A stretch of 64,000 bases of DNA from Candidatus Levybacteria bacterium RIFCSPLOWO2_02_FULL_37_18 (GTDB taxonomy: Bacteria; Patescibacteriota; Microgenomatia; Levybacterales; UBA12049): positions 30,244 to 94,243 of the forward strand of contig MFPD01000019.1 in the NCBI GenBank assembly GCA_001784115.1, written 5' to 3'. The notes below the pieces were generated by a model that saw only the letters and a list, made by a program, of their open reading frames with translations, searched no databases and had not been told where the DNA came from. A program made the position numbers and the translations under genes. Shown here piece by piece: positions 7,679 through 58,632 of the stretch; within the stretch, counting starts at the first letter, position 1; every line of letters begins with the position of its first letter.

Positions 7679-9474
7679 TTAACTGTCACACTCTTTGCTA
7701 AATTTCTCGGCTTGTCGGGATCAGATATTCCACGAGAAAGTGCCAAGTTATATGCCAAAACCTGGGCAATAACAACTTGAGGGATAAATGTGGCATCTCG
7801 ACAGTCTTCTGTTGGTAAAAACGCATCAAATACGCTATTATTTTTTGGACCAATTCCAATAATAAATCCTCCACGCGCGGCAATTTCGGCAGCATTAGAA
7901 ATGATATCGTCATATGTTTCATCCAGAGGGGCAATAACTATACATGGCGTGCCTTTTTCAATGAGGGCAATTACTCCATGCTTTAATTCTCCTCCTGCAA
8001 ATCCTTCCGCGTGCATATAACTTGTTTCTTTAATTTTTAGAGATGTTTCTAAAGCAGCTGCATACGATAAACCTCTTCCGATTATATAGATATGCTCTTT
8101 TTTCTTAATTTTTTCTACCACTTTTTTTATTTCTTTTATGTAATTTTCTTTTAATATATCTCTAATGTTTTTTGAGGCTTGATGTAATAGTTTTTTTCCT
8201 TCATTTTGTTTTTTTGCCAATGAAAATGCAGAAAGTAAAAGAATTGCCACCATTGCTGTAAAACTTTTTGTCCCTACTACTGCTTTTTCTGGTCCTGCGT
8301 AAAGAAGAATTTTTTCATCCGCTTGTCTATAAATTGTTGATCCACGTACATTTACAACCGCGGCAATTTTGCTGCTTTTCTCTTTTGCGTGCTCAATAGA
8401 CGAAACAACATCAATTGTCTCTCCGCTTTGCGAAATAGGAATTACCAAGCTTTCTGGAGTTAAATAATCGATCAAATAGGTAAATTCAGATCCAATAGAA
8501 AAGTTAACATGTTTTTTTGCAATTCTAGAAAATAAATACGTGCCGGCAAGCGCTGCATACGAAGCAGTCCCGCATCCAAGCATAAATGTTCCAAATGCTT
8601 TATCGATAAGATTGGCTAATTTGTTTGAATCAGCAAGAGAATTTAATGCAATATATTCAATCACATTTAGCTGTTCATGGATTTCTTTAATAAGAAAATG
8701 TTTATATGCCCCTTTTTCTTCGTCTTCTATCTTCCAATTGATTGTTTCGTACCTTGGCGTAATTTTTTGCCCTCCCGAAAGAGATACTAATTGAATATTT
8801 TTTCCCAAGATAACCATTTCATTGTCTTTTAAAAAGATAACTTTTTTTGTGTGTTTTATTATTCCCGAAGCATCCGAGGCAATATAAAATCCATCTGTTG
8901 CATGCCCCATAACCAAGGGTGAACCGGTTTTGGCAGCTATAATTTCCGAAGAAGGCGCGTAAGCAACCACAATTGCATTGAGTCCTTTTAATCTATTGAA
9001 GGCATCTTTTACCGATGAGGCAAATCCTTCTTTTTTTAAGTATTCTTCAATAAGATGCGGAATAACTTCTGTATCTGTTTGGGAAGTAAACACGTGCCTC
9101 TTTTTCACCAACTCATGTTTAATTTCCTGAAAATTTTCAACAATTCCATTATGAATAACCGCAATTTCTTTTTTGCAATCTAAATGGGGATGTGCATTTT
9201 CGACAGTCACACCTCCATGAGTTGCCCACCTCGTGTGCCCCAAAGCAAGCTGCGAACTATTAGCTGAAAGCTCGGAGCTAAGCTCTGCATTTCCAATTTT
9301 GCCAACATGCTTTTCAAGTGTGAATTTTGAATTTTGAATTTTGAATTTTGAATTTTGAATTCTTGACGCTATTCCCCATGAATCATATCCTCTGTATTCT
9401 AAAAGTTTTAACCCCTCCAAAACCTTCTGAGAAGCTTTATTGTCAGAACCGACATATGCAAATATTCCGCACAT
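7675..9474 (-). CDS. glmS: Glutamine--fructose-6-phosphate aminotransferase GlmS
   Basis: 599 aa beginning MCGIFAYVG (N-terminal Cys nucleophile), followed by SIS domains. It contains an in-frame heptamer-repeat insertion encoding IQNSKFKIQNSKF. Confidence 0.9.
   Translation of the reverse strand: MCGIFAYVGSDNKASQKVLEGLKLLEYRGYDSWGIASRIQNSKFKIQNSKFTLEKHVGKIGNAELSSELSANSSQLALGHTRWATHGGVTVENAHPHLDCKKEIAVIHNGIVENFQEIKHELVKKRHVFTSQTDTEVIPHLIEEYLKKEGFASSVKDAFNRLKGLNAIVVAYAPSSEIIAAKTGSPLVMGHATDGFYIASDASGIIKHTKKVIFLKDNEMVILGKNIQLVSLSGGQKITPRYETINWKIEDEEKGAYKHFLIKEIHEQLNVIEYIALNSLADSNKLANLIDKAFGTFMLGCGTASYAALAGTYLFSRIAKKHVNFSIGSEFTYLIDYLTPESLVIPISQSGETIDVVSSIEHAKEKSSKIAAVVNVRGSTIYRQADEKILLYAGPEKAVVGTKSFTAMVAILLLSAFSLAKKQNEGKKLLHQASKNIRDILKENYIKEIKKVVEKIKKKEHIYIIGRGLSYAAALETSLKIKETSYMHAEGFAGGELKHGVIALIEKGTPCIVIAPLDETYDDIISNAAEIAARGGFIIGIGPKNNSVFDAFLPTEDCRDATFIPQVVIAQVLAYNLALSRGISDPDKPRNLAKSVTVK
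9322..9362. repeat. Tandem heptamer repeat (GAATTTT)x~6 in frame inside glmS
   Basis: Plus strand reads gaattttgaattttgaattttgaattttgaattttgaattc. On the coding strand it encodes IQNSKFKIQNSKF. Confidence 0.9.
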
Positions 9475-9480
9475 AGTTTT

Positions 9481-10137
9481 TTAAGTATTTTTTACTACTT
9501 CTATTGCTTGATCAAAATTATATACAGTTGCCGCTGGACGAAACCAGGGAATTTCCTTTTGATTGTCCGCGAGTCTTCCCCACTTCATCCATATTGTTAT
9601 TACGTTCTTATTCTGAAGAAACGCATGATATAGCATTTCAAGCGTATCATCGACAAAATACATTTTATAGTCTTTATTACTAAATATTGTTTTCATAATG
9701 TTTTTTTTATCTTTGGCGATAAAAATAAAATCCGGATGTAAAAAATGTTCAAAACTTGAAAGTTTGGCCCTTTGATAGGCATCTTCACCCTGAGAAAGAA
9801 TACCTATTTTACCCAATTTTTCTAATTCTTTCAAGCTAGGTATAACATCTGAATATAAATGATCTTCCATTAATACTTTGTTTATCAAAAACTCTCTTAT
9901 AATACTAGCCATTTCTTCTCTTCCAATATGCTTTATAAATTGTTTTATAAACTCCTCCGTATCAAAATAACCACGTTTGGAAATAATGTCCGAACAAACT
10001 TTTTCTGCTAATTTTGATGTATCTTCTACGTGTTCTGCATCAACTAATACTGATGCTATTTTTCCAAAAAGTGCATTTCTGTATAATTGAGTATCAAACA
10101 ATGTATGATCAATATCTAAAAGTACCAGTTTCTTCAT
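9481..10137 (-). CDS. HAD-superfamily hydrolase
   Basis: 218 aa with the motif I sequence LLDIDHTLFDT (DxDxT) and a C-terminal FVDD. Confidence 0.55.
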   Translation of the reverse strand: MKKLVLLDIDHTLFDTQLYRNALFGKIASVLVDAEHVEDTSKLAEKVCSDIISKRGYFDTEEFIKQFIKHIGREEMASIIREFLINKVLMEDHLYSDVIPSLKELEKLGKIGILSQGEDAYQRAKLSSFEHFLHPDFIFIAKDKKNIMKTIFSNKDYKMYFVDDTLEMLYHAFLQNKNVITIWMKWGRLADNQKEIPWFRPAATVYNFDQAIEVVKNT

Positions 10138-10775
10138 TTAATAATTGAGTTTTGCTCGTAAACCCCACGGACAGAAGTTAAAGGATATAATAGACAACCT
10201 TTTCCAAGAATCGTACCCGGATTAAGTACAGCATTAACGCCAATCTGTGAAGAATCTCCTATAATTGCGCCAAATTTTGTCAAACCGGTTTCTATTATTT
10301 TTTCTTTGTGTTTTATGGAAATCGGTTTTTGGTCGAATCTGAAATTAGCAAGTATAGCTCCACCTGCAATGTTTACTTTATTTCCGATAATGCTGTCTCC
10401 TATATAATTTAGGTGGGCAGCACACGAACCGTTAAACATGAGAGAATTTTTTACCTCTACTCCATGTCCAATGTGTACGGAATCTCCAATTACACAATTT
10501 TCCCGAAGAAACGCTGAGTGTCCAATAATACTATTTTTCCCAATAATGCAAGGCCCTGTAACAAATGCTCCGTCAAAAATTTCTGTTCCCTCTCCAATAT
10601 ATACATGTTTTTTGCCCTGATAGTTTTCTTGTACAACTCCATTTTCAAATAGAGAAATGATATACTCTTGTAAACGGCCGAGTACTTCCCAGGCCTTTTT
10701 ATCCTTGACAAAAAGGTCAGCAAAAGGAAAATCCGAAGTATCAAAAAAATCTTCTGTAAAAAATGTAGTATCCAT
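10134..10775 (-). CDS. Left-handed beta-helix (hexapeptide-repeat) acyltransferase; candidate stand-alone GlmU C-terminal-like domain
   Basis: 213 aa with recurring [LIV]G-x4 hexapeptide repeats (IGKNSIIGHSAFL, IGDSVHIGHG, IGNKVNIAGG). It lies immediately downstream of a nucleotidyltransferase gene. Confidence 0.55.
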   Translation of the reverse strand: MDTTFFTEDFFDTSDFPFADLFVKDKKAWEVLGRLQEYIISLFENGVVQENYQGKKHVYIGEGTEIFDGAFVTGPCIIGKNSIIGHSAFLRENCVIGDSVHIGHGVEVKNSLMFNGSCAAHLNYIGDSIIGNKVNIAGGAILANFRFDQKPISIKHKEKIIETGLTKFGAIIGDSSQIGVNAVLNPGTILGKGCLLYPLTSVRGVYEQNSIIK

Positions 10776-10802
10776 ATGTAAATTATTTATTATTTACCCG
10801 AT

Positions 10803-11552
10803 TTAATCAACGCCGAATTGCTCTCTGTTTTTTAAATGTTGAACTCTTTTTAGATCCTGAGGAGAGTTAACTGCAGTCCATGGAATTTCTCCCCATTCAA
10901 TGGTTTCTATGATTTCATGATTTTTGTTTGCTACGTCAATAATATCAGTTAGATAATATTCACCACTAAAAGAACTTTTAACAATGAGAGGCAAATATTT
11001 TTTAAAGAAACTAACTTTGCCAATATAACATCCAGCATTTACTTCTTTTATTAAGCGAATTGCTTCTGTAGCATCTTTTTCTTCTATAATTGAGCTAACG
11101 TTGCCATTTTTTCTCACAATTCTTCCAATTCCTGTCGGATTATCAAGATGTATTGTGGCAAAAAGCAAAGAAGGGTCTTTTCCAAAATATGTATTAATTA
11201 CTTTTTCAAGGAGAATTGAAGAATACAATGTATCTCCATTGATAATCAGTACATATTCTGAATTTGCTGGAAGAATATCAATTCCACAAGAAACAGCGAC
11301 AGCTGTTCCCAACAAATCTTTTTGTTCCGCAAACATTACTTCGTTTGAGAATAATGACATTACTGTTTGTTTTGCAAATCCGACAACAATAACAATTGGG
11401 CTAATACCTATCTGTTTTAAATGCTCAACGTTTTGGACAATCATTGGTTTTCCAAAAACAGAAAGAGTAACTTTATTAATATTTGTTACATTCATCCGTT
11501 TTCCTTTTCCAGCAGCAAGAATTATTCCCGCAATTTTTTTATTCATTCTCAT
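10803..11552 (-). CDS. Sugar-1-phosphate nucleotidyltransferase (GlmU N-terminal-like)
   Basis: 249 aa beginning KIAGIILAAGKGKRM (the G-x-G-x-R nucleotidyltransferase motif). Confidence 0.7.
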   Translation of the reverse strand: MRMNKKIAGIILAAGKGKRMNVTNINKVTLSVFGKPMIVQNVEHLKQIGISPIVIVVGFAKQTVMSLFSNEVMFAEQKDLLGTAVAVSCGIDILPANSEYVLIINGDTLYSSILLEKVINTYFGKDPSLLFATIHLDNPTGIGRIVRKNGNVSSIIEEKDATEAIRLIKEVNAGCYIGKVSFFKKYLPLIVKSSFSGEYYLTDIIDVANKNHEIIETIEWGEIPWTAVNSPQDLKRVQHLKNREQFGVD

Positions 11553-12888: not shown

Positions 12889-12890
12889 AA

Positions 12891-15204: not shown

Positions 15205-15911
15205 ATCATTCCAATAAAGGTTGCAAATTCACCAAATGTTTTATTTGAGTCTTTTCTGTACGAAAAAAATTGTTCGTTATTACAAGATGTACACAAATTT
15301 ACTCGTTCTATATTTTTATTTTGAACTTTAAATTGTTTTAAGATTTGAAGAACAATAGACTGCAAATCTAAAAAATACAAAGCATGTTTTTTTTGAAAAA
15401 AATTTTTAAAGCCAGGGTACCTTTGTTTAAACTGTTCAATCCTGTCTTTACTTACATCATAACAACAAACACCAATCGACGGTCCGATTCCTATCTTAAT
15501 ATTTGATAACTCACTCCCAAGTTTTATGAATTTTTTTATCATGTTTTCTACTATTCCCAAAAGAATTCCTTTGTACCCAGCGTGAACAACTCCGATAATC
15601 TTTTTAACAGAATCGTACATCACTATTGGTACACAATCCGCAGTAACCGCAAGGAGCACTTTATTTTTTTCTTGAGTAATGAGTCCGTCCGTATTGAAAA
15701 TTTCTGAAGCTGAATCCTTTTTAACTATTTCAATGTTGGTGGTGTGTTTTTGAACCATATACGTTATTTGTTTGGAACTCCCAATCACATGCGAAAGTTG
15801 TTCTATAAATCTCCTATCGAACTTATTGCCATGCTTAACACTCCCCACTGCCCTCGTTGAAAAACCAGCCAGCGCAAAAGGAAAATAATACACTCCGTTT
15901 GATTTTTTCAT
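15201..15911 (-). CDS. pgeF: YfiH/PgeF-family (DUF152) purine nucleoside phosphorylase / peptidoglycan editing factor
   Basis: 236 aa with a VHAGYKG motif resembling the HAGWRG signature. Confidence 0.7.
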   Translation of the reverse strand: MKKSNGVYYFPFALAGFSTRAVGSVKHGNKFDRRFIEQLSHVIGSSKQITYMVQKHTTNIEIVKKDSASEIFNTDGLITQEKNKVLLAVTADCVPIVMYDSVKKIIGVVHAGYKGILLGIVENMIKKFIKLGSELSNIKIGIGPSIGVCCYDVSKDRIEQFKQRYPGFKNFFQKKHALYFLDLQSIVLQILKQFKVQNKNIERVNLCTSCNNEQFFSYRKDSNKTFGEFATFIGMI

Positions 15912-17170
15912 TCTAATGCTTTCAAAACTGTTTTGTGCTCGCTCCAGGGTATTTCTTTTCCATGGTAACTCATGGAAGTCTCATGTCCTTTTCCGCACAA
16001 AAGAATAATGTCTCCTTTTTTTGCCAATTTCTTGATTATAAACTCAATTGCCTCTTTTCTATTTGGAATTTTAAAAAATACGTGTTCTCCATTCTGAATT
16101 CTTAATTCTAAACTCTGAACTAATCTTGCTCCTGCTTCTTCACAACCTTCTGCTATTTCAGCAATAATCTTGTCTGAATCCTCAAATCGCGGGTCTTCAT
16201 CGGTAAGCACGGTAATATCTGCAAGCCTGCCGCTTATTCTTCCCATCATGGGCCGTTTTAAAACATCCCTTTCACTTGCGCACCCGTACATGACAATAAT
16301 TCTTCCTTTTTCCTTTATATCAAAAGCAGTATTAAGCAGCGCCTCTAAAGCATCCGGCTTATGAGCAAAATCTATGATGATTGTAAAGCCTTTTGTATTG
16401 GGAATTTCTTCAAACCTTCCGGGAATTCCACTAAATCTCTCTAGACTTCCTTTAATTATTTGATTCGGAACATTAAGTATCAAACCAACAGCTGCGGCTG
16501 CTAATGCGTTTTTGATATTAAATTCTCCCGGCATTTTTAATTTAAATTTCCATTTTTCTTCTGCTTCATCTCCTTTTTTTAAACCAAATGTAACTGCTTT
16601 GTTGAGTATCTTATTGAAACTAACAGTAGAACAAACACTCCCTGGGATTCCGTCATAAGGAACAACTGTATGTTTTGCGTTAAGCAATAGTTTGAACTTG
16701 GCTTTAGCATAATTTTTAAAAGTTTTATGATAATCTAGATGTTCATGTGCAAGTGTGGTCAAAACGCCAATGAAAAAATTAATACATGCAACTCTGTTTT
16801 GATCTAATGCATGCGAAGAAACTTCTATAACAAAATACGTATCTCCGGCTTGTTTTGCCATTTTTAAATATTTTGGTAAATTCTCTGGATCAGGAGTAGT
16901 TACATGAAACCCTGTATCATAGCTCTTTCCGCCAATTTCAGCGTGAATACTTGATATCATCGAAACCCTAAATCCATTACTTTTGAGCATTTCATAAATC
17001 ATGTGTGTCGTTGTTGTCTTTCCGCTTGTGCCCGTAACTCCGATTACTCTTAATCCTTCTGAAGGAAATCCATAATATATATTCGCCAAAAAAGCCACAC
17101 CGAGATGATACAAGTTTTTAACCACTTGCCACATATGTGTATTATACCTGTTGGGCAAGAACCAGCACAA
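15908..17170 (-). CDS. Mur-ligase family protein, probably MurE (UDP-MurNAc-L-Ala-D-Glu:diamino-acid ligase) with a short N-terminal domain
   Basis: 420 aa with a GVTGTSGKTTTT P-loop. A DFAHKPDALEAL block matches the MurE DYAHTPDAL motif. A C-terminal EDPR lies where MurE has DNPR. Confidence 0.6.
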   Translation of the reverse strand: MCWFLPNRYNTHMWQVVKNLYHLGVAFLANIYYGFPSEGLRVIGVTGTSGKTTTTHMIYEMLKSNGFRVSMISSIHAEIGGKSYDTGFHVTTPDPENLPKYLKMAKQAGDTYFVIEVSSHALDQNRVACINFFIGVLTTLAHEHLDYHKTFKNYAKAKFKLLLNAKHTVVPYDGIPGSVCSTVSFNKILNKAVTFGLKKGDEAEEKWKFKLKMPGEFNIKNALAAAAVGLILNVPNQIIKGSLERFSGIPGRFEEIPNTKGFTIIIDFAHKPDALEALLNTAFDIKEKGRIIVMYGCASERDVLKRPMMGRISGRLADITVLTDEDPRFEDSDKIIAEIAEGCEEAGARLVQSLELRIQNGEHVFFKIPNRKEAIEFIIKKLAKKGDIILLCGKGHETSMSYHGKEIPWSEHKTVLKALE

Positions 17171-17181
17171 ATGGAGTTTTG

Positions 17182-17841: not shown

Positions 17842-17929
17842 TCCATTTTTAGTCTATAGAAATGATGGGAAAAAGTAAAGGAAAAATAGTGTAACAAACA
17901 CATCATTCATGATGATACTATCAGAAGGC

Positions 17930-18046
17930 TTATTTCGCATCTTTTATTTCGAGAGTTTTGTGGTTTGCAGTAACTTCAACCTTTTGCCCTCTTCTTCTCC
18001 AACCCAATTTTCTAAGAAGAGTCTTGGGAATCGCCACCACACCCAA
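17930..18046 (-). CDS. Short ORF resembling the AbrB/MazE/SpoVT swapped-hairpin DNA-binding domain (possibly an N-terminally degraded antitoxin-like remnant)
   Basis: Own translation (TTG start): LGVVAIPKTLLRKLGWRRRGQKVEVTANHKTLEIKDAK, ending in TAA. The frame is open back to ~18083 but contains no ATG. The ORF is not in the provided track. Confidence 0.25.
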   Translation of the reverse strand: MGVVAIPKTLLRKLGWRRRGQKVEVTANHKTLEIKDAK

Positions 18047-18182
18047 ATATTTCCCTAATGCAATAATTTTCGAATCATACTTTTAGTCTAATTAGTCTAT
18101 ACAGACATTCTACGGGCATAATCTTATTATAACAGATACTGACTATTGTAAGAATACTTTAAAAGATATATTATTCAATTAA

Positions 18183-18839: not shown

Positions 18840-18879
18840 GCCTACAAATAATTTTTCTTTCCTGTTATACTAATATTGT

Positions 18880-19449: not shown

Positions 19450-19452
19450 AAG

Positions 19453-19707: not shown

Positions 19708-19708
19708 A

Positions 19709-21385: not shown

Positions 21386-21397
21386 TTACTTAGTATA

Positions 21398-21675: not shown

Positions 21676-22581
21676 TTACATGAGCTTTTCAAACGCTCTT
21701 AACTTTGCGCTCCTACTTCTGATGTTGCTTCGAACTTCTTCCGGTGTTGGCTCAACAGGCTTTTTTATAATTATTGTCCCTGATCCTTTTTCTTCAAATT
21801 CCTTAAAATTTTGTTTTACGATTCCGTCTTCTAAAGAGTGAAATGTAATTACAACCAATCTTCCCTTATTGCCTAATAATCCTATCGAACTTGAAAGTGC
21901 TTCTCTTAGATTATTCAACTCGTCGTTAACTGCAATTCTTAGTGCCTGAAAAACTCGTGTTGCCGGATGTGTCTTTGTTATTCCCTTCAAACTTCGCTTA
22001 ACAATCTCTGCCAACTGACCCGTTGTTTCTATTTTTTCTAGTCTACGGGCGCTAATAATACTCTCAGAAATGACCCGAGCACGATACTCTTGACCCAATT
22101 TAGAAAATAATTCATAGAGCTCTCCTTTCCTTAACGCGTTAACAAGGTCTTTTGCTGTAACGCTTAGATTTTTATCCATCCGCATATCAAGCGGACCATT
22201 TTTACCAAAACTAAACCCCCGTCGGGGAGTATCCAGCTGGTGACTGGATACTCCCAAGTCAAATAAAATCCCATCAACATTTTCAAATCCGTTTTCTTTT
22301 GCGATCGCTTTTACATCTTTAAAATTCCCCTTTACAACTCTTAATTGTCCTTCTGTTTTGAGATTTGAACTTTGAGTTTTGAGTTTTTCCCGAACAAAAT
22401 CTAAAGCTTCTTCATCTACATCAATTCCCAGTATACTTCCCCCTCTTCTCAAAATCTCAAAACTATGTCCTCCTCCACCAAGTGTTGCGTCAATGTACTT
22501 TTTATTATCTTGAACGTTCAAAAATCTAATTACTTCCTCAACCAAAACCGGTGTATGAAAATTCTTATTCACCGCTTTCAT
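21676..22581 (-). CDS. rsmH: 16S rRNA (cytosine1402-N4)-methyltransferase RsmH (MraW)
   Basis: 301 aa with a GGGGHS SAM-binding motif. It contains an in-frame heptamer-repeat insertion encoding LKTQSSNLKT. Confidence 0.9.
   Translation of the reverse strand: MKAVNKNFHTPVLVEEVIRFLNVQDNKKYIDATLGGGGHSFEILRRGGSILGIDVDEEALDFVREKLKTQSSNLKTEGQLRVVKGNFKDVKAIAKENGFENVDGILFDLGVSSHQLDTPRRGFSFGKNGPLDMRMDKNLSVTAKDLVNALRKGELYELFSKLGQEYRARVISESIISARRLEKIETTGQLAEIVKRSLKGITKTHPATRVFQALRIAVNDELNNLREALSSSIGLLGNKGRLVVITFHSLEDGIVKQNFKEFEEKGSGTIIIKKPVEPTPEEVRSNIRSRSAKLRAFEKLM
22357..22388. repeat. Tandem heptamer repeat (TTTTGAG/ATTTGAA/CTTTGAG)x4 in frame inside rsmH
   Basis: ttttgagatttgaactttgagttttgagttttt, encoding LKTQSSNLKT. 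Confidence 0.8.
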
Positions 22582-40004: not shown

Positions 40005-40054
40005 GATTATAAATTTTAAACATTAAAAATTGAATAAAAATTAAAAATTTCAAA

Positions 40055-40681
40055 TTAAAAATTCTTTTTCGCTTCTCTTATAAATTTTCTAATCTTTTCA
40101 ATATCTTGTTTTCCGTCTGTCTCGACCCCAGATGCGACATCTACAATCTGTGGTTTTACTTTCTTTATAACGTCTGCGACATTCTCTGGATTTAAACCTC
40201 CTGCAAAGATTAAAGGAAATTCTTTTGCTAAAACACTAGCTTTTTCTAAATTAATCATTTGCCCCTCGCTTTGTTCTATTCTGTCTAAAAGATAAACATC
40301 TACCTTAAACTGCTTCATTTGTTTTCTCGCATCTTCAATGTCAAAATCTCCTGGAAATCTAAATGCTTTTATTGTTTTTATTTTTATTTGTTTTATATAC
40401 TCCTGTGGTTCGTCACCATGAAACTGAGCGTAATCTAAATTACACGTCTCAATTATTTTCTGTACTTGATTAAGTGGCATATTTTGAAAAACGCCAACTA
40501 AATTAATTTTGCCTTTCAACTGTTTGCTAATTTCTTTTACAACCTCACTATCTACAGTATGAGTTTTAATACGTGGTGTAAATACAAACCCTAAAAAATC
40601 AGCACCACCTTCAAAAGCAACTTCTGCTGCTTCCAAACTTCTTGTCGCGCAAATTTTAACTTTTACTTTCATAGTTTTCAA
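40055..40681 (-). CDS. trpF: Phosphoribosylanthranilate isomerase TrpF
   Basis: 208 aa. The track start is a TTG; an ATG at 40670-40672 (MKVKVKICATRS) is a likelier start. Confidence 0.8.
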   Translation of the reverse strand: MKTMKVKVKICATRSLEAAEVAFEGGADFLGFVFTPRIKTHTVDSEVVKEISKQLKGKINLVGVFQNMPLNQVQKIIETCNLDYAQFHGDEPQEYIKQIKIKTIKAFRFPGDFDIEDARKQMKQFKVDVYLLDRIEQSEGQMINLEKASVLAKEFPLIFAGGLNPENVADVIKKVKPQIVDVASGVETDGKQDIEKIRKFIREAKKNF

Positions 40682-40770: not shown

Positions 40771-41549
40771 AATATAAAATCTTTTATATTTTTCGCTTTC
40801 ATTAAACTCGTTCCCACAAGCACTCCTTTTGCTCCTGCTTCCCTATATTTTTGAACTTCTTGCGAACTTTTGATTCCTGAGAATCCCAGTTTTATAAATT
40901 TGTCTGGAACTTGTTTTAGAATTTCAGATGCTCTATCAACATCCACCTCAAAAGTATCCAAATCTCTTGCGTTAACTGCAATTATATATGGTTTTGAGTC
41001 GATCGCTCTTTCTATATGTTCTAAACTATCAATTTCAACAACTGGTTCAATACCTAAACCTATGGCATATTGAACTAATTCAGAAAGTTTTTTGTTACCA
41101 ACAATTCTTGCAATTAAAAGCACCGCATCAGCGCCTGATTTTATACCTTCGGCAATTTGATATGTATCAATAATAAAATCTTTCATAAGAATGGGAAGAT
41201 TGGTATTTTTCTTAATTTGATCAATTAGTTTAATATCTCCATTAAAAAAATGTTTTTCAACAACTAAAGAAATTGCATCAGCGTCTGCTTTTTCATATGC
41301 TTTTACCCGCTTTAGAATAGTTTTTTTTGAACCAAGATCTCCTTCACTTGGAGACGCTAACTTAATCTCCGCAATCAGAGTAATATCTTTTTTTGGATTG
41401 AGAATCGAATTCCTGAAATTACTCAAATTATAAACCGTTCCTTTTCGAGATTCTGGATGCGCCTTCGGCTTACCAGAATGACGTTTTTTTCTTTTTTTCA
41501 AATCTCTTTTTGTTTGCTCAACTATTTTTTGAAGTATTTTATTTTTCAT
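40752..41549 (-). CDS. trpC: Indole-3-glycerol phosphate synthase TrpC
   Basis: 265-aa TIM barrel. The C-terminus LSLRTK is contributed by repeat copy H. Confidence 0.85.
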   Translation of the reverse strand: MKNKILQKIVEQTKRDLKKRKKRHSGKPKAHPESRKGTVYNLSNFRNSILNPKKDITLIAEIKLASPSEGDLGSKKTILKRVKAYEKADADAISLVVEKHFFNGDIKLIDQIKKNTNLPILMKDFIIDTYQIAEGIKSGADAVLLIARIVGNKKLSELVQYAIGLGIEPVVEIDSLEHIERAIDSKPYIIAVNARDLDTFEVDVDRASEILKQVPDKFIKLGFSGIKSSQEVQKYREAGAKGVLVGTSLMKAKNIKDFILSLRTK

Positions 41550-42576
41550 ATTTTTGCGTTTCTTTTATTAATTGCTCTAATACTTGTTTTGCTTTTCCGC
41601 TATCAATTGCCTCTTGAGCCTTTTCAATTCCCTGCTCAATTGAGCTTGCTTTTCCAGCGACATATAATCCCAAAGCGCTGTTTAAAATAACAATATCACG
41701 ACATTGTCCTTTTTTACCATCTAAAACATTTAAAATAATCTCTGCATTCGTTTTCGAATCTGCTCCTTTTATTTTGTTTTGCGAAGCTTTTTTTACTCCA
41801 AAATCAGCAGGACTCACTATTCTTGATTTTATTTTTTTGCCTTGCACTTCGAGTACATGAGTTTTTGCAGAAATACTTACCTCATCCATTCCATCTTCAC
41901 TTGTTACCAATAACAAATGTTTATACCCAAATTCTTTACCAACACGTGCTAATTTTTTGGCTATAGAAAGATTTGGAACACCAATAATCTGCCTTTTTAC
42001 AGAAGCCGGATTTAAAAACGGACCAAGCAAATTAAAAATTGTTGGAATACCTAATTCTTTTCTAACAGAAGCTATAAATTTCATTGTCGGATGAAATAAT
42101 TGCGCGAATAAAAATACCATGCCTACTTTTTCTAAAACCAAACTTGCTTGAGAAGTGTTTAAATTAATATTCACTCCCAAACTTTCCAACACATCCGCGC
42201 TTCCACATTTACTGCTTGCTGCTCTATTACCATGCTTAGCTACCCTTACACCAGCTCCTGCAACTACAAATGCTGTTGCCGTAGAAATATTAAACGTCTG
42301 TTTTCCGTCTCCACCGGTACCACATACATCTATTGAATTTTTAACTTTTAACTTTGAACTTTGAACTTTTATCATATACTTCCTCATTCCTTCTATAAAC
42401 CCTACAATCTCCTCAGCTGTTTCTCCTTTTGACTTTAAAAGAATAAGAATTGCTGCCATTTGAGTAGGGCCAATCTTCCCCTCTGCCATTTGGCAAACAA
42501 GAAAAAAAGCCTCTTTCTGAGTAAGATTTTCTTTTGCTATTAATTTTATAAACAACTGTTTTGTATCCATATTCAT
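41539..42576 (-). CDS. trpD: Anthranilate phosphoribosyltransferase TrpD
   Basis: 345 aa with a DVCGTGGDGKQTFNISTA motif. It has an in-frame heptamer-repeat insertion encoding KVQSSKLKVKN. Confidence 0.9.
   Translation of the reverse strand: MNMDTKQLFIKLIAKENLTQKEAFFLVCQMAEGKIGPTQMAAILILLKSKGETAEEIVGFIEGMRKYMIKVQSSKLKVKNSIDVCGTGGDGKQTFNISTATAFVVAGAGVRVAKHGNRAASSKCGSADVLESLGVNINLNTSQASLVLEKVGMVFLFAQLFHPTMKFIASVRKELGIPTIFNLLGPFLNPASVKRQIIGVPNLSIAKKLARVGKEFGYKHLLLVTSEDGMDEVSISAKTHVLEVQGKKIKSRIVSPADFGVKKASQNKIKGADSKTNAEIILNVLDGKKGQCRDIVILNSALGLYVAGKASSIEQGIEKAQEAIDSGKAKQVLEQLIKETQKYEK
42333..42370. repeat. Tandem heptamer repeat (TTGAATT/TTTAACT/TTGAACT)x~5 in frame inside trpD
   Basis: ttgaatttttaacttttaactttgaactttgaactttt, encoding KVQSSKLKVKN. 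Confidence 0.8.
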
Positions 42577-44830: not shown

Positions 44831-44856
44831 ATGTAATATACCATATTGTTTCAGAT

Positions 44857-45522: not shown

Positions 45523-45525
45523 ACG

Positions 45526-46608: not shown

Positions 46609-46612
46609 ACAT

Positions 46613-47689
46613 TTATTTTACGTATTGCCGAACAAGACTCAAAAACTGCTCTTTAAATCTTTTTTCTGAAAACCTTTGTGCGTTGATGTGGATACTTCTA
46701 GTATTAAATTTCATCTTTTCAAATTTTTTTAAGGCTTGAATAAGTGATTTTGATGTTTGAGATTTAAATAAAACACCTGTTTTCCCATCAATAACTATCT
46801 CTTTTGCTCCTCCCTTATTAAAAGCAATAACCGGTTTTCCAAAACTTTGTGCTTCTACAATTGCCAACCCAAAGTCTTCAACGCCTGAAAAAATAAGAGC
46901 CTTGCAGTTCTTATAATAACCCGAAAGCTCATCATCAGTCAAGTTTCCCGGAAAAAAAATTGATCGCCCTGACATCTTTTTAAGTCTCTTTTCCTCCATT
47001 CCCTTCCCGATTATCAAAAGAGGGACATTAAGCTTATTACATGCCGAAATTGCAAGATCTATTCTTTTATATGGAACCAACCGGGAAACAATCAGAAAAT
47101 ATCCAGAAAGAGTGTTTAATGCTCTCCCCCTTTTTTTTGAAAAACCAGCAGAAGGATATACAACAACAGAATCTCTTGAATAATATTTTTTAATACGCTT
47201 TTTTATTTCAAGGGAAATTGCAATATAATACTTTGGGGTTTTTGCGATTTTTTTGTCCCATATACGAAGTAGAAAAATAATAGGTATTGTAAAAGATCTA
47301 AAAAAATTATTTTTAAAATATTCATTATATCCGCTCCATAAATATCTCGTCGGAGTCAGACAATAACAAATATGGGTTGTATTCTTGTCAACTCTAACCG
47401 CCTTTGCATACTCAGAAGTGACAGAAATAACCACATCAAATTTTTTAAAAGAAAAACTCATAAAAGCTAAAGGCATAAAAGGCGCAAATAATTCATGGAA
47501 CATAGATGCAAAGGGAATATATTGTAAAAAAGAAGCTTTCACACGAAAAACCCGAGCCCACGGCGCAGTCTTGGGATTATATACAGATGTGTAAAGAGGG
47601 GCTTTTGGAAATAATTCATGCAGGGCAAGGAGAACTCTTTCGGCGCCACCCCACTTATTAACCCGATCGTAGACGATGGCAACTTTCAT
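46613..47689 (-). CDS. Glycosyltransferase family 1 (GT4-type)
   Basis: 358-aa GT-B fold with a C-terminal E-x7-E-like motif region (FGLAIVEAQSFGKPVIA). Confidence 0.7.
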   Translation of the reverse strand: MKVAIVYDRVNKWGGAERVLLALHELFPKAPLYTSVYNPKTAPWARVFRVKASFLQYIPFASMFHELFAPFMPLAFMSFSFKKFDVVISVTSEYAKAVRVDKNTTHICYCLTPTRYLWSGYNEYFKNNFFRSFTIPIIFLLRIWDKKIAKTPKYYIAISLEIKKRIKKYYSRDSVVVYPSAGFSKKRGRALNTLSGYFLIVSRLVPYKRIDLAISACNKLNVPLLIIGKGMEEKRLKKMSGRSIFFPGNLTDDELSGYYKNCKALIFSGVEDFGLAIVEAQSFGKPVIAFNKGGAKEIVIDGKTGVLFKSQTSKSLIQALKKFEKMKFNTRSIHINAQRFSEKRFKEQFLSLVRQYVK

Positions 47690-48809
47690 AAACTTCCAAT
47701 GTCTTATACGTTAAATCTCTCCAGGAAAATTTTTTCACCAATAGTAAACCTTTCTTTTTTTGCGACTCTATTCTATCATCTTTTTTTAATACCCGCATGA
47801 AAACTCCACCAATGCTTGAAACATTTTTTGGATCAAAGTAAAAAGCTGCATCGCCAACTATTTCTCTATGAACCACGATATCTGATAACATCACCAAACA
47901 ATTATTACTCATTGCTTCTATGACTGGCAGGTCAAATCCCTCCATACGTGCTGGACTCACAAGCGCTTTTGCATTTTTATAAAGCTCTGCAAGCTCTCTG
48001 TCTGTAACATATCCATAAAAAATTAATGAGTGATCTATTCCATTTGAAATAACATATTTCTTTAATTTCCTATAAAAATAATCCTCTTTCCCAACCAAGA
48101 CAAGTTTGAGATCTTTATGAACTTTATGAACAAAATCTTGAACAAGTAACTGTTTAAACGCATCAATTAATCTAACTAAGTTCTTGTGTGGATACGCATT
48201 CCCAACGTAAAGAAAGTATGAACCTTTAGGTAATTGGTATTTATTTGAAATTTGAAATTTGAAATTTGAAATTTTTTTGTCTATTCCTTCATACGTCACA
48301 ACTATTTTTTCCGGATCAACTTTATAGTGATCAATTATCTCTTTTTTTGTTGCTTGCGATACGGTAATTATTTTTTGCGCTCTATTAATTGCATGGCTTA
48401 TCACATGCTTATATCCTAATCGTTTTAACTGATAAATCCCCAACGGAAGAGTCGATGCCTCTCCTGTATCAAAATGATTAATAATCAAATCATGAATGGT
48501 AACTACAAAACTCCCCTTGTAAAAAATAGGCACAGAAAAATAAGGAAAATGAACAAGATCAAGTGTTTCTTTGTTTAGAATTTTTGGAAATTGTATTTGT
48601 TCTTCAATCGTATGCCACCGAATGTTCGTTCGAACAACCTTGAACTTGTCATCCTGAACTTGATTCAGTATCTCTTGTTCATCCTTTTCCAAACAAAACA
48701 ATACATACTCATTCTTCTGACCAAGTTTATGCAGTTGACCAACAAGATTTCGAATATATCTTCCAACTCCGCTCTCATTCCACAATCTTACATCGATACC
48801 AATCCTCAT
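47658..48809 (-). CDS. Glycosyltransferase family 1 (GT4-type) with two in-frame repeat insertions
   Basis: 383-aa GT-B fold. It carries a heptamer-repeat peptide KKISNFKFQISNKYQ in the interdomain linker and a palindromic-element copy K encoding EQEILNQVQDDK near the N-terminus. Confidence 0.7.
   Translation of the reverse strand: MRIGIDVRLWNESGVGRYIRNLVGQLHKLGQKNEYVLFCLEKDEQEILNQVQDDKFKVVRTNIRWHTIEEQIQFPKILNKETLDLVHFPYFSVPIFYKGSFVVTIHDLIINHFDTGEASTLPLGIYQLKRLGYKHVISHAINRAQKIITVSQATKKEIIDHYKVDPEKIVVTYEGIDKKISNFKFQISNKYQLPKGSYFLYVGNAYPHKNLVRLIDAFKQLLVQDFVHKVHKDLKLVLVGKEDYFYRKLKKYVISNGIDHSLIFYGYVTDRELAELYKNAKALVSPARMEGFDLPVIEAMSNNCLVMLSDIVVHREIVGDAAFYFDPKNVSSIGGVFMRVLKKDDRIESQKKKGLLLVKKFSWRDLTYKTLEVYESCHRLRSG
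48244..48275. repeat. Tandem heptamer repeat (TTTGAAA)x4 in frame inside the GT4 gene 47658..48809
   Basis: tttgaaatttgaaatttgaaatttgaaattttttt, encoding ISNFKFQISN. Confidence 0.9.
48648..48672. repeat. Palindromic element, copy K (GTCATCCTGAACttgaTTCAGTATC), inside the GT4 coding sequence and in frame
   Basis: It is the same hairpin module as copies C, I and L. Confidence 0.6.
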
Positions 48810-49681: not shown

Positions 49682-49682
49682 A

Positions 49683-50876: not shown

Positions 50877-50879
50877 AGC

Positions 50880-55450: not shown

Positions 55451-56265
55451 AGAGTCGAAAGAAATGCCTGTTTATATGTTTTTAGTAAATAGTTATTCCC
55501 CGTTATGGCCCCAATTATAATTGCCGCAAGTGCCTTTAGCATAAGTAATAACCTCAACACAGTATATTCTACGCTGCTTTTGTGCTTTTTGTAAAAATAT
55601 TGTATTCCTTTATATATTTGAATAATCGCAAATGACCTGCTTGAACTTCCCTGACCAAGATGAATCACTTGACTTTCTGGTAAAAAAAATATTTTATACC
55701 CTAATTTTTTTATTCTAAAACAAAGTTCCATATCTTCAGCATACATAAAAAAATGTTCGTCAAATCCATTAATTTCCTTAAAAAGATCGCCTCTTGTAAG
55801 AAAAAAAGATCCTTCTACCCAATCAACTTCTTGTTTAATTTTCGGAACAAAATGATTTTCCAAAAAAACATGCAGTAAAGAGTAAAAATGTCCGGCCGAT
55901 TTTCCGCCGACTACTCCTACATCATTTCTATTATTCAAAAAATTCACCATTATATGAATTGTTGAGCTATCGTTAATAACAGCATCTGAATTTAAAAAAA
56001 GTAAAAACTCTCCATTTGCTTTTTTTGATCCAATATTATTTCCTTTACCAAAACCAACATTTTCACTGTTTTCTATAACCAATATTTTCTTGTATATTTT
56101 TTTAAAAAACCCAACCGTAGCATCGGAAGAATTATTGTCAACGACTATAACCTCAAACTTATTATCTTCTATTTCTTTTTTGTAATATTTAAAAAGTGAA
56201 TCAAGACATTGTATTGTTAAATCTTTCGTGTTAAAAGTAACGATTATAATAGAAAGCGTGATCAT
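55447..56265 (-). CDS. Glycosyltransferase family 2
   Basis: 272 aa with IIIVTFNT ... VVDNNSSD ... YAEDMELCFR. Confidence 0.8.
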   Translation of the reverse strand: MITLSIIIVTFNTKDLTIQCLDSLFKYYKKEIEDNKFEVIVVDNNSSDATVGFFKKIYKKILVIENSENVGFGKGNNIGSKKANGEFLLFLNSDAVINDSSTIHIMVNFLNNRNDVGVVGGKSAGHFYSLLHVFLENHFVPKIKQEVDWVEGSFFLTRGDLFKEINGFDEHFFMYAEDMELCFRIKKLGYKIFFLPESQVIHLGQGSSSRSFAIIQIYKGIQYFYKKHKSSVEYTVLRLLLMLKALAAIIIGAITGNNYLLKTYKQAFLSTL

Positions 56266-56271
56266 GAAAAA

Positions 56272-56841
56272 TTATCGAAACCATGCGGCCCTGCCTAATG
56301 TATATGACAAGTCAGAAACAGTCCTTTTTTCAATTACTTTTGCCGGAACTCCTCCAACTATATCCATTGATTCAACATTTTTGGTAACTATTGCCCCTGC
56401 TGCAACTATACAACCTCTTCCGAGTGTTACTCCAGGAAGAATGATGCTTCGTGGACCAATGAATACGTAATCCTCCACAACAACTGGTGCGTGTATTGGA
56501 GTAAAATTAGGATTTTGTATATCATGTTCGGAATTATAAATCATTGCCTCGGTTGCAATGGCAACATGACTTCCAATTGAAAGCCTGTCTCGTCCGTCTA
56601 AAGCAGTCCCTTCGCCTACAATCGTGTCATTCCCAATTACAATGTTATGAGAATTATAAAATCGTACACCCATGTGAATGGTAGTACCTTTGCCAATTTT
56701 TACGCCACTTAATCTATAAAAAAATCTTCTGATAAAATGAGATGGAATATTTCCCACAAAACTGTTGAGAAAAAACATTTCTAATTCCAAAAATATTGTC
56801 CATATTCTTCTTTTTACTTTATTTAAAATTGAATCATTCAT
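56272..56841 (-). CDS. Hexapeptide-repeat (LbH) O-acetyltransferase (WbbJ / maltose acetyltransferase-like)
   Basis: 189 aa with hexapeptide repeats (IGNDTIVGEGTALDG ... IGPRSIILPGVTLGRGCIVAAGAIV). Confidence 0.75.
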   Translation of the reverse strand: MNDSILNKVKRRIWTIFLELEMFFLNSFVGNIPSHFIRRFFYRLSGVKIGKGTTIHMGVRFYNSHNIVIGNDTIVGEGTALDGRDRLSIGSHVAIATEAMIYNSEHDIQNPNFTPIHAPVVVEDYVFIGPRSIILPGVTLGRGCIVAAGAIVTKNVESMDIVGGVPAKVIEKRTVSDLSYTLGRAAWFR

Positions 56842-56842
56842 A

Positions 56843-57985
56843 TTATTTTTCTTCTACAATCTGCTCCAAAACAGTAAGTGTAAGACGTGCGGTTTTTTCC
56901 CAACTAAATTTTTCTACTTGAATTTTTCCTTTTTCTATTAGCTCTGATCTAAGTTTTACATTGTTAAGCAACAATGCCATTTTTTCTTTTATATCCTGAG
57001 TATCTAATGGATTAACATACAAGGCTGCGTTTCCTCCTGCTTCCGGAAGACTGCTAACATTGCTGGTTATGACCGGACAACTATATTTCATCGCTTCCAA
57101 AACAGGTAAACCAAAACCTTCATACAAACTGGGAAGAACAAAAAATAATGCGTTTTTATAAAGTTGGGCTAATTCTTTATCCGTTGCAAAATCCAAAAAC
57201 TTAACACTTTGTTCTACGTTAAATTTTCTAGGAGCATCCAAAATTTCTTCATATAACCATCCCTTTTTACCAACAATCACAAGATCAATATCTTTTTTAT
57301 CCAAGAGAGAAAACGCCTCGATGAGTCTAACAATATTTTTCCTCGGCTGAAGCGTCCCCACGAATAAAATGTAGTTTTTTTTTATATTAAATCTCTCCTG
57401 TAAAACTTTTGACTTTTGCATTGTAATTTTGAATTTTGAATTTTGAATTTTGAATTTAATTCCCGGGTATGTTACCACTACTTTATCTTCTAAAACCCCG
57501 TACTGTTTGATTATATCACCTTTACTTGCGTTGCTTATAGTAAAGATCTTTTTAGCCTTTTTCACCGAATAACGAGTCCAATTTTTAAGCTGAAATAAGT
57601 CAGATTGTTTAAAAAGCTCCGGAAAATGCAGAAAAGACAAGTCCATCACAGATATTGCACAAGGAACAGGGGAAAATCTGGGAGCATAATGTGTGGGTGT
57701 AAAAAAAACATCAGAACGTGGAGAGTGAAGAAACAAATCAATTGGCAATCCAATCTGCGTCCACAATTTCTTAGGTCCAACGATTCGATACTTCCATCCT
57801 GGCCTTTCCTTTGGTAAATCATTAATTGGTTTGTTCTTTACATATATTATGAATTGGAAATTGGAAATTGGAAATTGGAAATTTTCGAATTGTTTTATCA
57901 ATTCGAATGCGTATTCTCCAATTCCTACTCTTTGACTTTCATTTGCTTCATTTCCATCGATACCTATTATCATAGTGAGTGTCAT
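56843..57985 (-). CDS. Glycosyltransferase family 1 (GT4-type) with two in-frame heptamer-repeat insertions
   Basis: 380-aa GT-B fold. It carries NFQFPISNFQF in the N-terminal domain and KFKIQNSKFKI after YPGI in the interdomain linker. The track ATG lies inside palindromic element L, so an internal start at ~57973 (MIIGIDG) is possible. Confidence 0.7.
   Translation of the reverse strand: MTLTMIIGIDGNEANESQRVGIGEYAFELIKQFENFQFPISNFQFIIYVKNKPINDLPKERPGWKYRIVGPKKLWTQIGLPIDLFLHSPRSDVFFTPTHYAPRFSPVPCAISVMDLSFLHFPELFKQSDLFQLKNWTRYSVKKAKKIFTISNASKGDIIKQYGVLEDKVVVTYPGIKFKIQNSKFKITMQKSKVLQERFNIKKNYILFVGTLQPRKNIVRLIEAFSLLDKKDIDLVIVGKKGWLYEEILDAPRKFNVEQSVKFLDFATDKELAQLYKNALFFVLPSLYEGFGLPVLEAMKYSCPVITSNVSSLPEAGGNAALYVNPLDTQDIKEKMALLLNNVKLRSELIEKGKIQVEKFSWEKTARLTLTVLEQIVEEK
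57424..57458. repeat. Tandem heptamer repeat (GAATTTT)x~5 in frame inside the GT4 gene 56843..57985 (linker)
   Basis: taattttgaattttgaattttgaattttgaattta, encoding KFKIQNSKFKI. Confidence 0.9.
57851..57885. repeat. Tandem heptamer repeat (GAATTGG/AAATTGG)x5 in frame inside the GT4 gene 56843..57985 (N-domain)
   Basis: gaattggaaattggaaattggaaattggaaatttt, encoding NFQFPISNFQF. Confidence 0.9.
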
Positions 57986-58005
57986 TCTGAACTCGTTTCA
58001 GAATC
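57981..58005. repeat. Palindromic element, copy L (GTCATTCTGAACtcgTTTCAGAATC)
   Basis: It sits exactly at the junction between the truncated GT4 paralog and the full GT4 gene. Confidence 0.6.
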
Positions 58006-58632
58006 TCAAATTCCCGGATATAACACTTTTAATCTGTTTTCTTCAATACCTAAAATTTCCATTGCGTCCTTTTTTGTTGCTTCTGAAATACAGAAAATCA
58101 TATCTGATTCTTTTTTTACCCATTGTAATTTTCTTTTTTGAACATCAACGATTTTCTTATCTGTTTCGTTGGGAAATTTATAAACAATAGTGTCATATAA
58201 AATAGTAGCTTTTTTTGCTTTTAAAACAGGCGGTTCTGTCCAGTCGGAAGAAATAAACAAATCTACATCTCCAATAAGCCACTCGATCGGAAAAATATGA
58301 AATTTGTTCCAAAGTATATCAAGAAAAGAAGGGGGTATCTTGAATTTTTTTATTTGAACATTATGATTTGATTGAAAATTGAAAATTGAAAATTGAAAAT
58401 TTCTTCTCATGCTTGAAAAAAATAATACGTATTCATTTTTTGTATCCAACTCAATTACGTTTTGAACCAAATTACGAAGATACTCCGAAACTCCTGTTTC
58501 TTCATAGGCTATTTGCGAAACATCAATTCCTATTTTCATTTTTTTCGATAAAAGAATAGTTGTTGGATGATTGACAAGAGAAAAAAAGCTGCCGCGTACC
58601 AAACAAGACGTTCTGCGGTAAAAAATATCCAT
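58006..58632 (-). pseudogene. Truncated GT4 paralog (N-terminal Rossmann half only); tandem partial duplicate of the downstream GT4 gene
   Basis: The 208-aa ORF ends ...LKVLYPGI*, at the position equivalent to VVVTYPGI in the 56843..57985 gene. It has the same heptamer-derived NFQFSIFNFQ peptide. The likely start is MKIGIDVSQ (~58539). Confidence 0.5.
58366..58401. repeat. Tandem heptamer repeat (ATTGAAA)x4 in frame inside the truncated GT4 paralog
   Basis: atttgattgaaaattgaaaattgaaaattgaaaatt, encoding NFQFSIFNFQ. Confidence 0.9.

Follow-up and report, generated by a model that had tools for sequence, protein, structure and literature searches.

Heptanucleotide arrays within conserved genes of a groundwater Levybacteria lineage are probably coding microsatellites filtered by frame, stop codons and loop tolerance

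How can head-to-tail repeats of a 7-nucleotide (nt) unit, whose length is not a multiple of three, be accommodated within the conserved genes of a bacterium? We investigated this question in a 64-kb stretch of DNA (hereafter, the window) in which such arrays lie inside glmS, rsmH, trpD, a Mur ligase gene and three genes of glycosyltransferase family 4 (GT4). The host bacterium belongs to the Candidatus Levybacteria, in the Microgenomates group of the candidate phyla radiation (CPR), and is an uncultured groundwater organism. The GlmS and RsmH proteins of the window are identical to those of Ca. Levybacteria metagenome-assembled genomes (MAGs) from the Rifle aquifer (GCA_001783775.1 and GCA_001782355.1). 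The window has a GC content of about 35% and carries nearly all of its genes on the minus strand. Open reading frames (ORFs) of at least 120 amino acids (aa) together occupy about 93% of the window, and no tRNA genes were found in it. Our best reading is that the arrays are heptanucleotide microsatellites in coding sequence, produced by slippage and then filtered by the reading frame, by stop codons and by what protein loops tolerate; we give this reading a probability of about 0.68.

We located the arrays with Tandem Repeats Finder and an exact-repeat scan, and assigned their host genes by Pfam. Eight arrays are coding, all of them on the minus strand. The glmS gene (7675-9474) contains (AATTCAA)x5.9, which is perfect over 9321-9361 and reaches 6.4 copies over 9321-9366 when imperfect ends are counted; residues 37-52 of the protein are accordingly SRIQNSKFKIQNSKFT. 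The gene that we call GT4a (47658-48809) has a perfect (ATTTCAA)x4.6 at 48243-48274, read as KISNFKFQISN in the interdomain linker after YEGI. Two arrays are found in GT4b (56843-57985). One occupies the interdomain linker after YPGI at 57405-57457, with a perfect (AATTCAA)x4.7 at 57425-57457 and two degenerate units at 57405-57418, and encodes KFKIQNSKFKITMQKSK. The other, in the N-terminal region, is a perfect (ATTTCCA)x4.6 at 57852-57883 encoding NFQFPISNFQF. A third GT4 gene, consisting of the N-terminal domain only (58006-58632), holds a perfect (TTTTCAA)x4.4 at 58371-58401, read as NFQFSIFNFQS. The remaining coding arrays are imperfect: (AACTCAA)x4.7 with 80% matches at 22355-22387 in rsmH (21676-22581; peptide EKLKTQSSNLKT), (AAGTTCA/AAGTTAA)x5.6 with 80-92% matches at 42333-42371 in trpD (41539-42576; peptide IKVQSSKLKVKNSI, immediately ahead of the GTGGD motif), and a degenerate array of about four TTCAGAA units with 81% matches at 16091-16119 in the Mur ligase gene (15908-17170; peptide VQSLELRIQN). 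A check of the intergenic DNA, proposed in the first-pass annotation of this window, gave one more, unstranded and degenerate array at 40016-40063 in the trpF-trpB spacer, with an (AATTTTT)-like unit on the minus strand that includes TAA.

All host ORFs are intact, and the coding arrays are in frame with their units read in all three phases, yielding 7-residue peptide repeats of the NSKFKIQ type. The first-pass annotation had listed seven loci of 4-6 tandem heptamers that encode peptides with a 7-aa period in intact ORFs. The repeat scans and ORF translations recover all seven, in coordinates, units and peptides, and add the Mur ligase array, which had been overlooked. Perfect period-7 arrays of at least four copies number five in the window, as compared with none in 200 third-order Markov simulations. 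The window contains no perfect array of at least four copies at periods 5, 6, 8 and 9, and none of at least three copies at periods 4, 6 and 8-15 nt; the single perfect array at period 5 has exactly 3.0 copies (6479-6493). Uninterrupted head-to-tail runs of short units, longer than expected by chance, are what defines a microsatellite, and the five perfect window arrays are of this kind. Their lengths are 31-33 nt or 41 nt. The absence of window arrays of 21-30 nt fits the growth of a short seed by multiples of 21 nt.

We then investigated the unit sequences and their orientation. The coding-strand units are AATTCAA (glmS and the GT4b linker), AACTCAA (rsmH), AAGTTCA (trpD), ATTTCAA (GT4a), ATTTCCA (the GT4b N-terminus) and TTTTCAA (the N-domain GT4 gene). 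The suggestion that their common orientation results from stop codons is supported by six of the eight perfect runs (counting the rsmH and trpD fragments), whose unit meets a stop in the reverse orientation but not in the coding one. The two exceptions are the AATTGGA unit at 57852, which is free of stops in either orientation, and a TTTTAAC fragment in trpD, with a stop in both. In a metagenome scan, (AAWTTCA)x4 matched at least 120 contigs, from which 80 loci of 22-68% GC were readable. Arrays of the unit family at these loci number 64 in a sense-strand open frame, none in an open frame on the antisense strand only, and 18 in no long open frame. Arrays with stop-containing units are found between genes, namely the window array at 40016-40063 and an (AATTTAA) array at 9935-9959 of locus L022. 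In an AT-rich unit made of a run of A and a single G or C, stop avoidance forces the form T(n)CA(m), for example TTCAAAA. Among 1608 stop-free unit classes weighted by composition, AAAATTC, AAATTTC and AATTTTC rank 16th, 22nd and 32nd, and most of the classes ranked above them encode very hydrophobic or poly-lysine peptides. We also considered AATTCAA as a privileged unit and rejected this for viral contigs, where it had 28 matches and two control units of equal composition had 21 and 22. The GC skew is negative across positions 1-64000. Since the gene strand is almost uniform and the GC skew keeps its sign across the window, the orientation of the arrays relative to transcription is inseparable here from that relative to replication.

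The arrays are not peculiar to this lineage, contrary to what had first been supposed. We compared homologues of GlmS (n=120, with the array-bearing hairpin measurable in 118), RsmH (n=117) and GT4b (n=119-120), scoring a peptide as periodic if it had at least three consecutive identical residues at i and i+7, with other periods as controls. A previous criterion of five identities in seven was dropped, as arrays of 10-11 residues are too short for it. At the same sites in GlmS, RsmH and GT4 proteins, many CPR relatives have 7-periodic peptides of other units. In GlmS, 92 of the 118 hairpins have the 15-residue base form without an insert and 26 have extra residues, most often +7 aa (eight sequences) and next +8 aa (four, including that of the window). 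Many of the inserts are themselves 7-periodic, such as IKNSESRIKNY, KVKSSKLKVQS, KVKSQKSKVKNK and KTQDSRLKTQN. In a rough neighbour-joining tree, insert-bearing sequences are dispersed among insert-free ones, a pattern suggestive of repeated gain and loss. The closest GlmS relative (P0003) has 89% identity and the same array peptide. At the DNA level, glmS genes of relatives have heptamer arrays of other units (AAAGTCA, AAAGTTC and AGAATTC). The scan for glmS contigs gave seven loci; as the repeat peptide was among the queries, L003 and L005-L007 are biased to AATTCAA arrays and were used for their other arrays only.

Among the RsmH homologues, 51 of 117 are 7-periodic, as compared with 0-9 for the other periods from 4 to 10, and 32 of these 51 periodic runs are at the window's array site, around position 60. 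The periodic segments are very diverse (LKTQNSKLKT, FKFQISNFK, FQFPISNFQ, VKSQKSKVK and WKLEAGKWN), and their length peaks at 28 aa, which is +7 over the array-free class of 21 aa. The rsmH gene of a relative, L020, has a perfect (AAATTTC)x4.7 where the array of the window is degenerate. For GT4b, 46 of 119 homologues are 7-periodic, mainly at the window's two array sites, and at the linker the orthologues either have no segment or have different units. Conserved family motifs give scores at period 9 in GT4b and at period 6 in GlmS as well; period 7 is set apart by the diversity of its segments and not by count alone.

Comparison of orthologous arrays at the DNA level is informative about their history. 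L220 is the closest GlmS relative for which DNA is available (74% aa identity), and its glmS has about three units, AAAGTTC AAAGTTC AAAATTT. The six AAAATTC-type units of the window thus amount to exactly +21 nt, with the unit homogenised, and copy number varies between these relatives by whole units. The GT4b gene of another relative, L221, is 70.7% identical to that of the window in nucleotides. Its N-terminal array is a perfect (AATTTTC)x4.7, as compared with (AATTTCC)x4.6 in the window, and the same single base differs in every unit. Such a pattern excludes independent point mutation, and the arrays must have been renewed by contraction and expansion. The N-domain GT4 gene likewise has AAATTTC x3.9 in L221 at the site of TTTTCAA x4.4 in the window. 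Together, these comparisons indicate ongoing turnover of the arrays at orthologous sites, that is, apparent concerted evolution. L221 also shows a gain of its own, an array in a PMT_2 gene (+5 aa) that is not in the window.

The first-pass annotation had placed the arrays in loops and linkers, which the alignment of GlmS with the E. coli protein and an AlphaFold2 model of GT4b support. We take the GlmS site to be the tip of a beta-hairpin in the glutaminase domain. It coincides with a gap in E. coli GlmS (4amv). In the GT4b model (predicted local distance difference test score, pLDDT, of 90.7), the linker array is coil with a pLDDT below 50 at residues 180-186 and is predicted to be disordered; the N-terminal array covers the end of helix 22-35 (alpha1), a loop and the start of strand 43-49 (beta2). 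The same annotation had described the segments as insertions. Some of them do bring a net gain, but this gain is smaller than the array. GlmS is +8 aa relative to the modal class and +7 relative to the closest relative with DNA, while RsmH is +4 aa relative to two relatives and +6 to +8 relative to PDB homologues. At its array loop, the Mur ligase exceeds two aligned relatives by 8+4 (or 8+2) aa. TrpD gains +2 to +4 aa over PDB and representative homologues, with an array that spans 13 codons. The GT4a linker is presumably of about the usual length for the GT4 family, with no clear net gain.

We propose the following explanation for these observations. A 7-nt unit would be amplified head to tail, most likely by replication slippage, and three filters would act on the products. 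First, the net change in length would have to be a multiple of 3 nt, which three units satisfy (21 nt, or 7 aa). Second, the coding-strand unit could contain no TAA, TAG or TGA in any phase. Third, the array would have to fall within a solvent-exposed loop, a hairpin tip or a linker. Arrays that pass would then be renewed by contraction and expansion, remaining perfect while the unit drifts, at the same loops in many Levybacteria and related CPR lineages. Slippage combined with selection accounts for five features: GlmS differs by a 21-nt step, no window array is 21-30 nt long, the coding arrays keep to one orientation, they sit in loops, and orthologous arrays are perfect but different. The arrays are probably neutral or slightly deleterious by-products of a mutational process biased to period 7, and not regulatory devices.

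Several points weigh against this explanation. Simple slippage gives no reason for a preference for period 7 over 5, 6, 8 and 9. It also leaves unexplained how the first in-frame +21 nt could arise in an essential gene, from a seed of two copies or fewer, without passing through lethal out-of-frame states; and because concerted evolution implies mutation in length, out-of-frame variants must arise. Some arrays span 11-13 codons yet add only 0-4 aa net, and they are thus not pure insertions. The similarity of the units is only partly explained by slippage and the filters. The mean pairwise cyclic Hamming distance of the seven window units is 1.52, versus 3.63 under a null model of composition and freedom from stops (P<5e-5) and 2.80 under a stricter AT-rich null (P about 1e-4), a likeness that hints at sequence specificity. 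One unit can recur at several loci of a genome (AGAATCT at three in L006, CCTAAAT at two in L003 and AATTTTC at two in L221), and even contigs of 58-68% GC contain AT-rich arrays of this unit family.

A more specific generator is conceivable, although we hold it only tentatively and would not expect it to be correct. In the Levybacteria or the Microgenomates, and possibly in other heptamer-rich lineages, a generator that is specific to period 7 and biased in sequence may be rewriting particular surface loops of conserved proteins all the time. Such a generator would perhaps be enzymatic rather than generic slippage, and could act by a staggered cut of 7 bp or by template-directed addition. The arrays would be long-lived at orthologous sites, would evolve in concert and might serve as landing sites for GC-rich insertions of the kind described below.

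We next considered whether the tracts are phase-variable contingency loci, in which a change of one unit would shift the gene out of frame and, at least in the GT4 genes, generate heritable variation in surface glycans. Genes for glycosyltransferases are a classical case of phase variation. A unit of 7 nt is not divisible by three, the tracts are inside ORFs, and four of the eight coding arrays are in three GT4 genes of one glycan cluster; moreover, tract length does vary on an evolutionary timescale, as the concerted evolution shows. The E. coli K1 gene neuO uses the same device with a heptanucleotide unit (PMC13001214). This possibility, raised in the first-pass annotation as an on/off frameshift switch, is nevertheless unlikely in view of the stability of the tracts. 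The four tracts of the GT4 cluster have identical lengths in contigs from at least five samples and several assemblers, which we fetched through a neighbour gene independent of the arrays. Six contigs agree on the glmS tract, and the four of these that cover the Mur ligase tract also agree on it. With at least 99.8% identity to the window, these contigs represent one population. Exactly the window GlmS protein is carried by 24 contigs, and the array peptides are kept throughout the 90%-identity clusters of GT4b, GT4a, the N-domain gene and TrpD, with no truncated allele among the members. At the consensus level, no length-variant or out-of-frame allele was found in the assemblies examined or among the cluster members; the agreement of 5-6 assemblies per locus from different samples is likewise one of consensus sequences, in which minority alleles would be invisible. 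The tracts have only 4-6 copies, as compared with 3-53 in neuO (20 being the commonest), and most of them are in the middle of the gene. The three GT4 genes are dispensable and face the environment; glmS, trpD, rsmH and the Mur ligase gene are not of this type. Half of the arrays are in these four genes, and with a reduced CPR genome an OFF state in them would presumably be lethal or strongly deleterious. Phase variation is not supported by heterogeneity or tract length, and gene type speaks against it in part only, with the GT4 genes as a possible exception.

Arrays beyond the Levybacteria bear on a further alternative, the footprint of a mobile element. Other CPR groups and one cyanobacterium also hold many period-7 arrays. 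We found 3-9 of them per 15-22 kb in each of Wolfebacteria, Saccharibacteria, another Patescibacteria MAG and the cyanobacterium, at loci that were partly selected by the repeat peptide. At the 80 metagenome loci, arrays of at least 2.5 copies number 166 at period 7, versus 32 at period 6 and six each at periods 8 and 9. An apparent preferred size of 31-34 nt among the metagenome matches was rejected as an artefact of the fixed-phase pattern, for which detection rises from 28 to 34 nt; arrays outside the query pattern show only a weak bump at 31-34 nt. In a Wolfebacteria MAG (L006), an ORF of 791 aa upstream of glmS (7610-9985) contains six separate period-7 arrays, whose different units number five if AGAATCT and AGATTCA are merged and six if they are not, and the adjacent glmS has an AGAATCT array. 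The local density of arrays there is much above that of the window. In contigs of 58-68% GC (L052, L038, L045 and L057), the arrays are (AAATTCA)n or (AATTTCA)n. A second, unrelated heptamer lies directly beside the AT-rich array in three of these (GTTGCTG in L052, CCAGCCC in L038 and TTTGACA in L045), and the array of L057 faces inverted partial copies downstream of a stop codon.

Some arrays also enclose other small sequences. In three Levybacteria, the (AAAGTCA)n array of glmS contains a GC-rich element of 22-24 nt, TTCGACnnnGCTCAGGAC, with array units on both sides (L022 10101-10160, L025 ~200-260 and L026 ~1380-1440). The consensus of the element is TTCGAC-nnn-GCTCAGGAC, and its peptides are PFDFAQGG, SIRQAQDR and IHSASSGQ. 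Related copies are dispersed in L022 (4047 and 17921), L006 (16891), L041 and L064. The 1.7 Mb of fetched loci contain eight matches to the motif, for which a rough, uncomputed estimate of the number expected by chance is about 0.2. It resembles the very small mobile repeats that Elhai et al. reportedly described in 2008 from Nostoc genomes, which are also said to be rich in heptamers. Similar-looking peptides (FDFAQDK, LSEVEG and PAGRQG) interrupt the arrays of several GT4b and RsmH homologues. The GT4b linker of L221 (within 10001-11188) has an AAAGTCA-like array and, after it, about 45 inserted nt that have inverted ends (TCTGG...CCAGA) as well as a CCCC-GA-GGGG core. This insertion encodes DSGQVEDAPRGARMT and may be another nested mini-insertion.

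A tiny element with a 7-bp target duplication, or with a TTCAAAA-like target, might insert and leave, adding units each time. The significant likeness of the units, the same unit at several loci of a genome, the AT-rich arrays in GC-rich contigs (sometimes beside a second heptamer array) and the GC-rich element within the GlmS array of relatives are all in its favour, and horizontal spread has been argued for TAACTGA arrays (MacGregor 2015, PMC4679880). We consider it quite improbable for the window, however. Inspection by eye, in place of a dedicated inverted-repeat scan, revealed no conserved flanks, inverted ends or separate target duplications at the window loci. The window arrays differ from miniature inverted-repeat transposable elements, repetitive extragenic palindromes and small dispersed repeats, in that their flanks share nothing and their units differ between loci. 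Units also differ between orthologous sites, and the counts in viral contigs show that AATTCAA is not privileged over control units. The GC-rich element has no copy in the window, and its three array-flanked copies are at one orthologous site and may represent a single event. No transposase-like gene turned up beside the arrays, although no search was aimed at transposases.

Alternatively, the 7-residue peptides might themselves be selected, for example because longer hairpins or spacers in linkers tune the activity of the enzyme, with the DNA periodicity secondary. Periodic peptides do occur at the same loop sites in many lineages, the N-terminal site of GT4b is nearly constant in length (43-45 residues in 82 of 120 sequences), and a longer NeuO repeat is reported to raise catalytic activity (PMC13001214). 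Selection on peptides would not need identical codons, yet the DNA arrays are perfect, including synonymous positions, in genes that are 71% identical. Changes of unit alter most residues (FQFPISN versus FQFSIFN, and KFKIQNS versus KVKSQKS), many orthologues have no segment at all (92 of 118 for GlmS), and the linker array is predicted to be disordered. We thus regard selection for the peptides as very unlikely.

A perfect 33-nt repeat of period 7 would loop the graph of an assembler with a short k-mer, to which we attribute the fact that Logan contig L018 ends exactly within the GT4b linker array; an assembly or sequencing artefact at low-complexity sequence is effectively excluded, as the tracts are the same across pipelines and samples (NCBI MAGs, ENA contigs of the MEGAHIT-style k141 type and ANAN16 scaffolds), all are in frame, and equivalent arrays exist in unrelated datasets.

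The stand-alone GT4 gene deserves a separate description. The first-pass annotation had assigned an array at 58366-58401 to a GT4 gene; the domain is indeed GT4, but the host gene (58006-58632, minus strand) has only the N-terminal Rossmann domain and ends exactly at YPGI. It is directly upstream of the full-length GT4b gene. Its ORF has 208 aa, and a start at residue 32 (~58539) gives the 177-aa form that is called in other records. We considered that it had been truncated by a frameshift in the tract and rejected this, since L221 carries the same N-domain-only gene at 7862-8395, also ending at YPGI, with 67% identity. As judged from this conservation, it is a genuine split or half GT4 gene and not a frameshifted pseudogene.

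The first-pass annotation had stated that no equivalent system is known. This does not hold, as prokaryotic heptanucleotide simple sequence repeats (SSRs), TAACTGA arrays within ORFs and the AAGACTC tract of NeuO have all been published (PMC4679880, PMC4692102 and PMC13001214). As summarised in two later papers, heptanucleotides are the most abundant SSR class of 5-11 nt in most prokaryotic genomes, and slippage, or a footprint of the polymerase, has been proposed to explain them (Mrázek 2007, via PMC4679880 and PMC4692102). Like the window arrays, these SSRs, as described in those summaries, are head-to-tail 7-nt arrays beyond chance expectation, and a richness in arrays is particular to certain genomes. 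In the same summaries, however, non-triplet units are mainly intergenic and the rich genomes are those of Burkholderia, cyanobacteria, actinobacteria and Xanthomonas. The window differs in that nearly all of its arrays are within conserved genes of a CPR host that is 93% coding, at orthologous loops and with concerted evolution.

The TAACTGA arrays of marine Beggiatoaceae, cyanobacteria and Bacteroidetes are closer in their coding logic. Those within ORFs are confined to the orientation that is free of stops and encode an LSVISYQ repeat (MacGregor 2015, PMC4679880). They share with the window 2-6 copies, this orientation, a 7-residue peptide repeat, one dominant unit per genome and an origin that is unexplained (PMC4679880). 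Unlike the window arrays, they are mostly intergenic, just upstream of start codons, and have been proposed as binding sites of a regulator; the cases within ORFs are mostly at protein ends or in hypothetical proteins, with an RNA polymerase beta-prime-like ORF as a noted exception (PMC4679880). The window instead has a family of related AT-rich units in the middle of genes for housekeeping enzymes.

The neuO tract of E. coli K1 consists of AAGACTC units, and full translation is obtained only if their number is divisible by three (PMC13001214). It is likewise a 7-nt unit in a coding region that is read in three phases and gives a full-length product only when in frame. In contrast to the 4-6 copies of the window, mostly mid-gene and in core enzymes for half of the hosts, the 3-53 copies of neuO are at the 5' end of a non-essential, phage-borne gene for surface modification; 66% of genomes are out of frame, and the tract is a true switch (PMC13001214). 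The insert of one GlmS homologue (P0084, KTQDSRLKTQN) is consistent, as a peptide, with this same AAGACTC unit.

G-rich heptamer repeats prefer a length of four units and occur less often than expected within coding DNA (Rehm 2015, PMC4692102). The repeats of Calothrix PCC 7601, as well as those with GGGGA(T/C)T and GGGAATC units in Nostoc and Xanthomonas, resemble the window arrays in their period of 7, many loci, few preferred units and about four copies (PMC4692102). They differ in being over-represented in non-coding DNA and G-rich, and have been interpreted as formers of G-quadruplexes (PMC4692102). The units of the window are AT-rich and coding, belong to a CPR host and cannot form a G-quadruplex. 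The cyanobacterial locus L007 has G/C-rich heptamer arrays as well as AATTTTG/TCAAAAT arrays. We take the Calothrix PCC 7601 heptamers to be the short tandemly repeated repetitive (STRR) sequences, a class of specific G/C-containing heptamers that are mainly intergenic in filamentous cyanobacteria and from which the window arrays are distinct.

The repeat class and its coding logic are thus already known. A full-text literature search returned no paper linking CPR or Patescibacteria with heptamer repeats, and three features appear to be undescribed, namely the prevalence of the arrays in core genes of a CPR lineage, their recurrence at orthologous loops and their concerted evolution. Microsatellites with non-triplet units are expected to be strongly counter-selected in essential genes, but here they are present at about one per 8 kb, and in relatives 7-periodic peptides lie at the same loops, in about a quarter of the homologues for GlmS and in about 40% for RsmH and GT4b. 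In practical terms, the arrays break assemblies made with short k-mers, inflate apparent lineage-specific insertions and could be used as strain markers. They also provide a natural system for the question of why period 7 prevails in prokaryotes, which has been open since 2007, and for length change under the constraint of the reading frame. For the small genomes of uncultured CPR bacteria, they offer a natural system in which to weigh mutation against selection in the shaping of protein loops.

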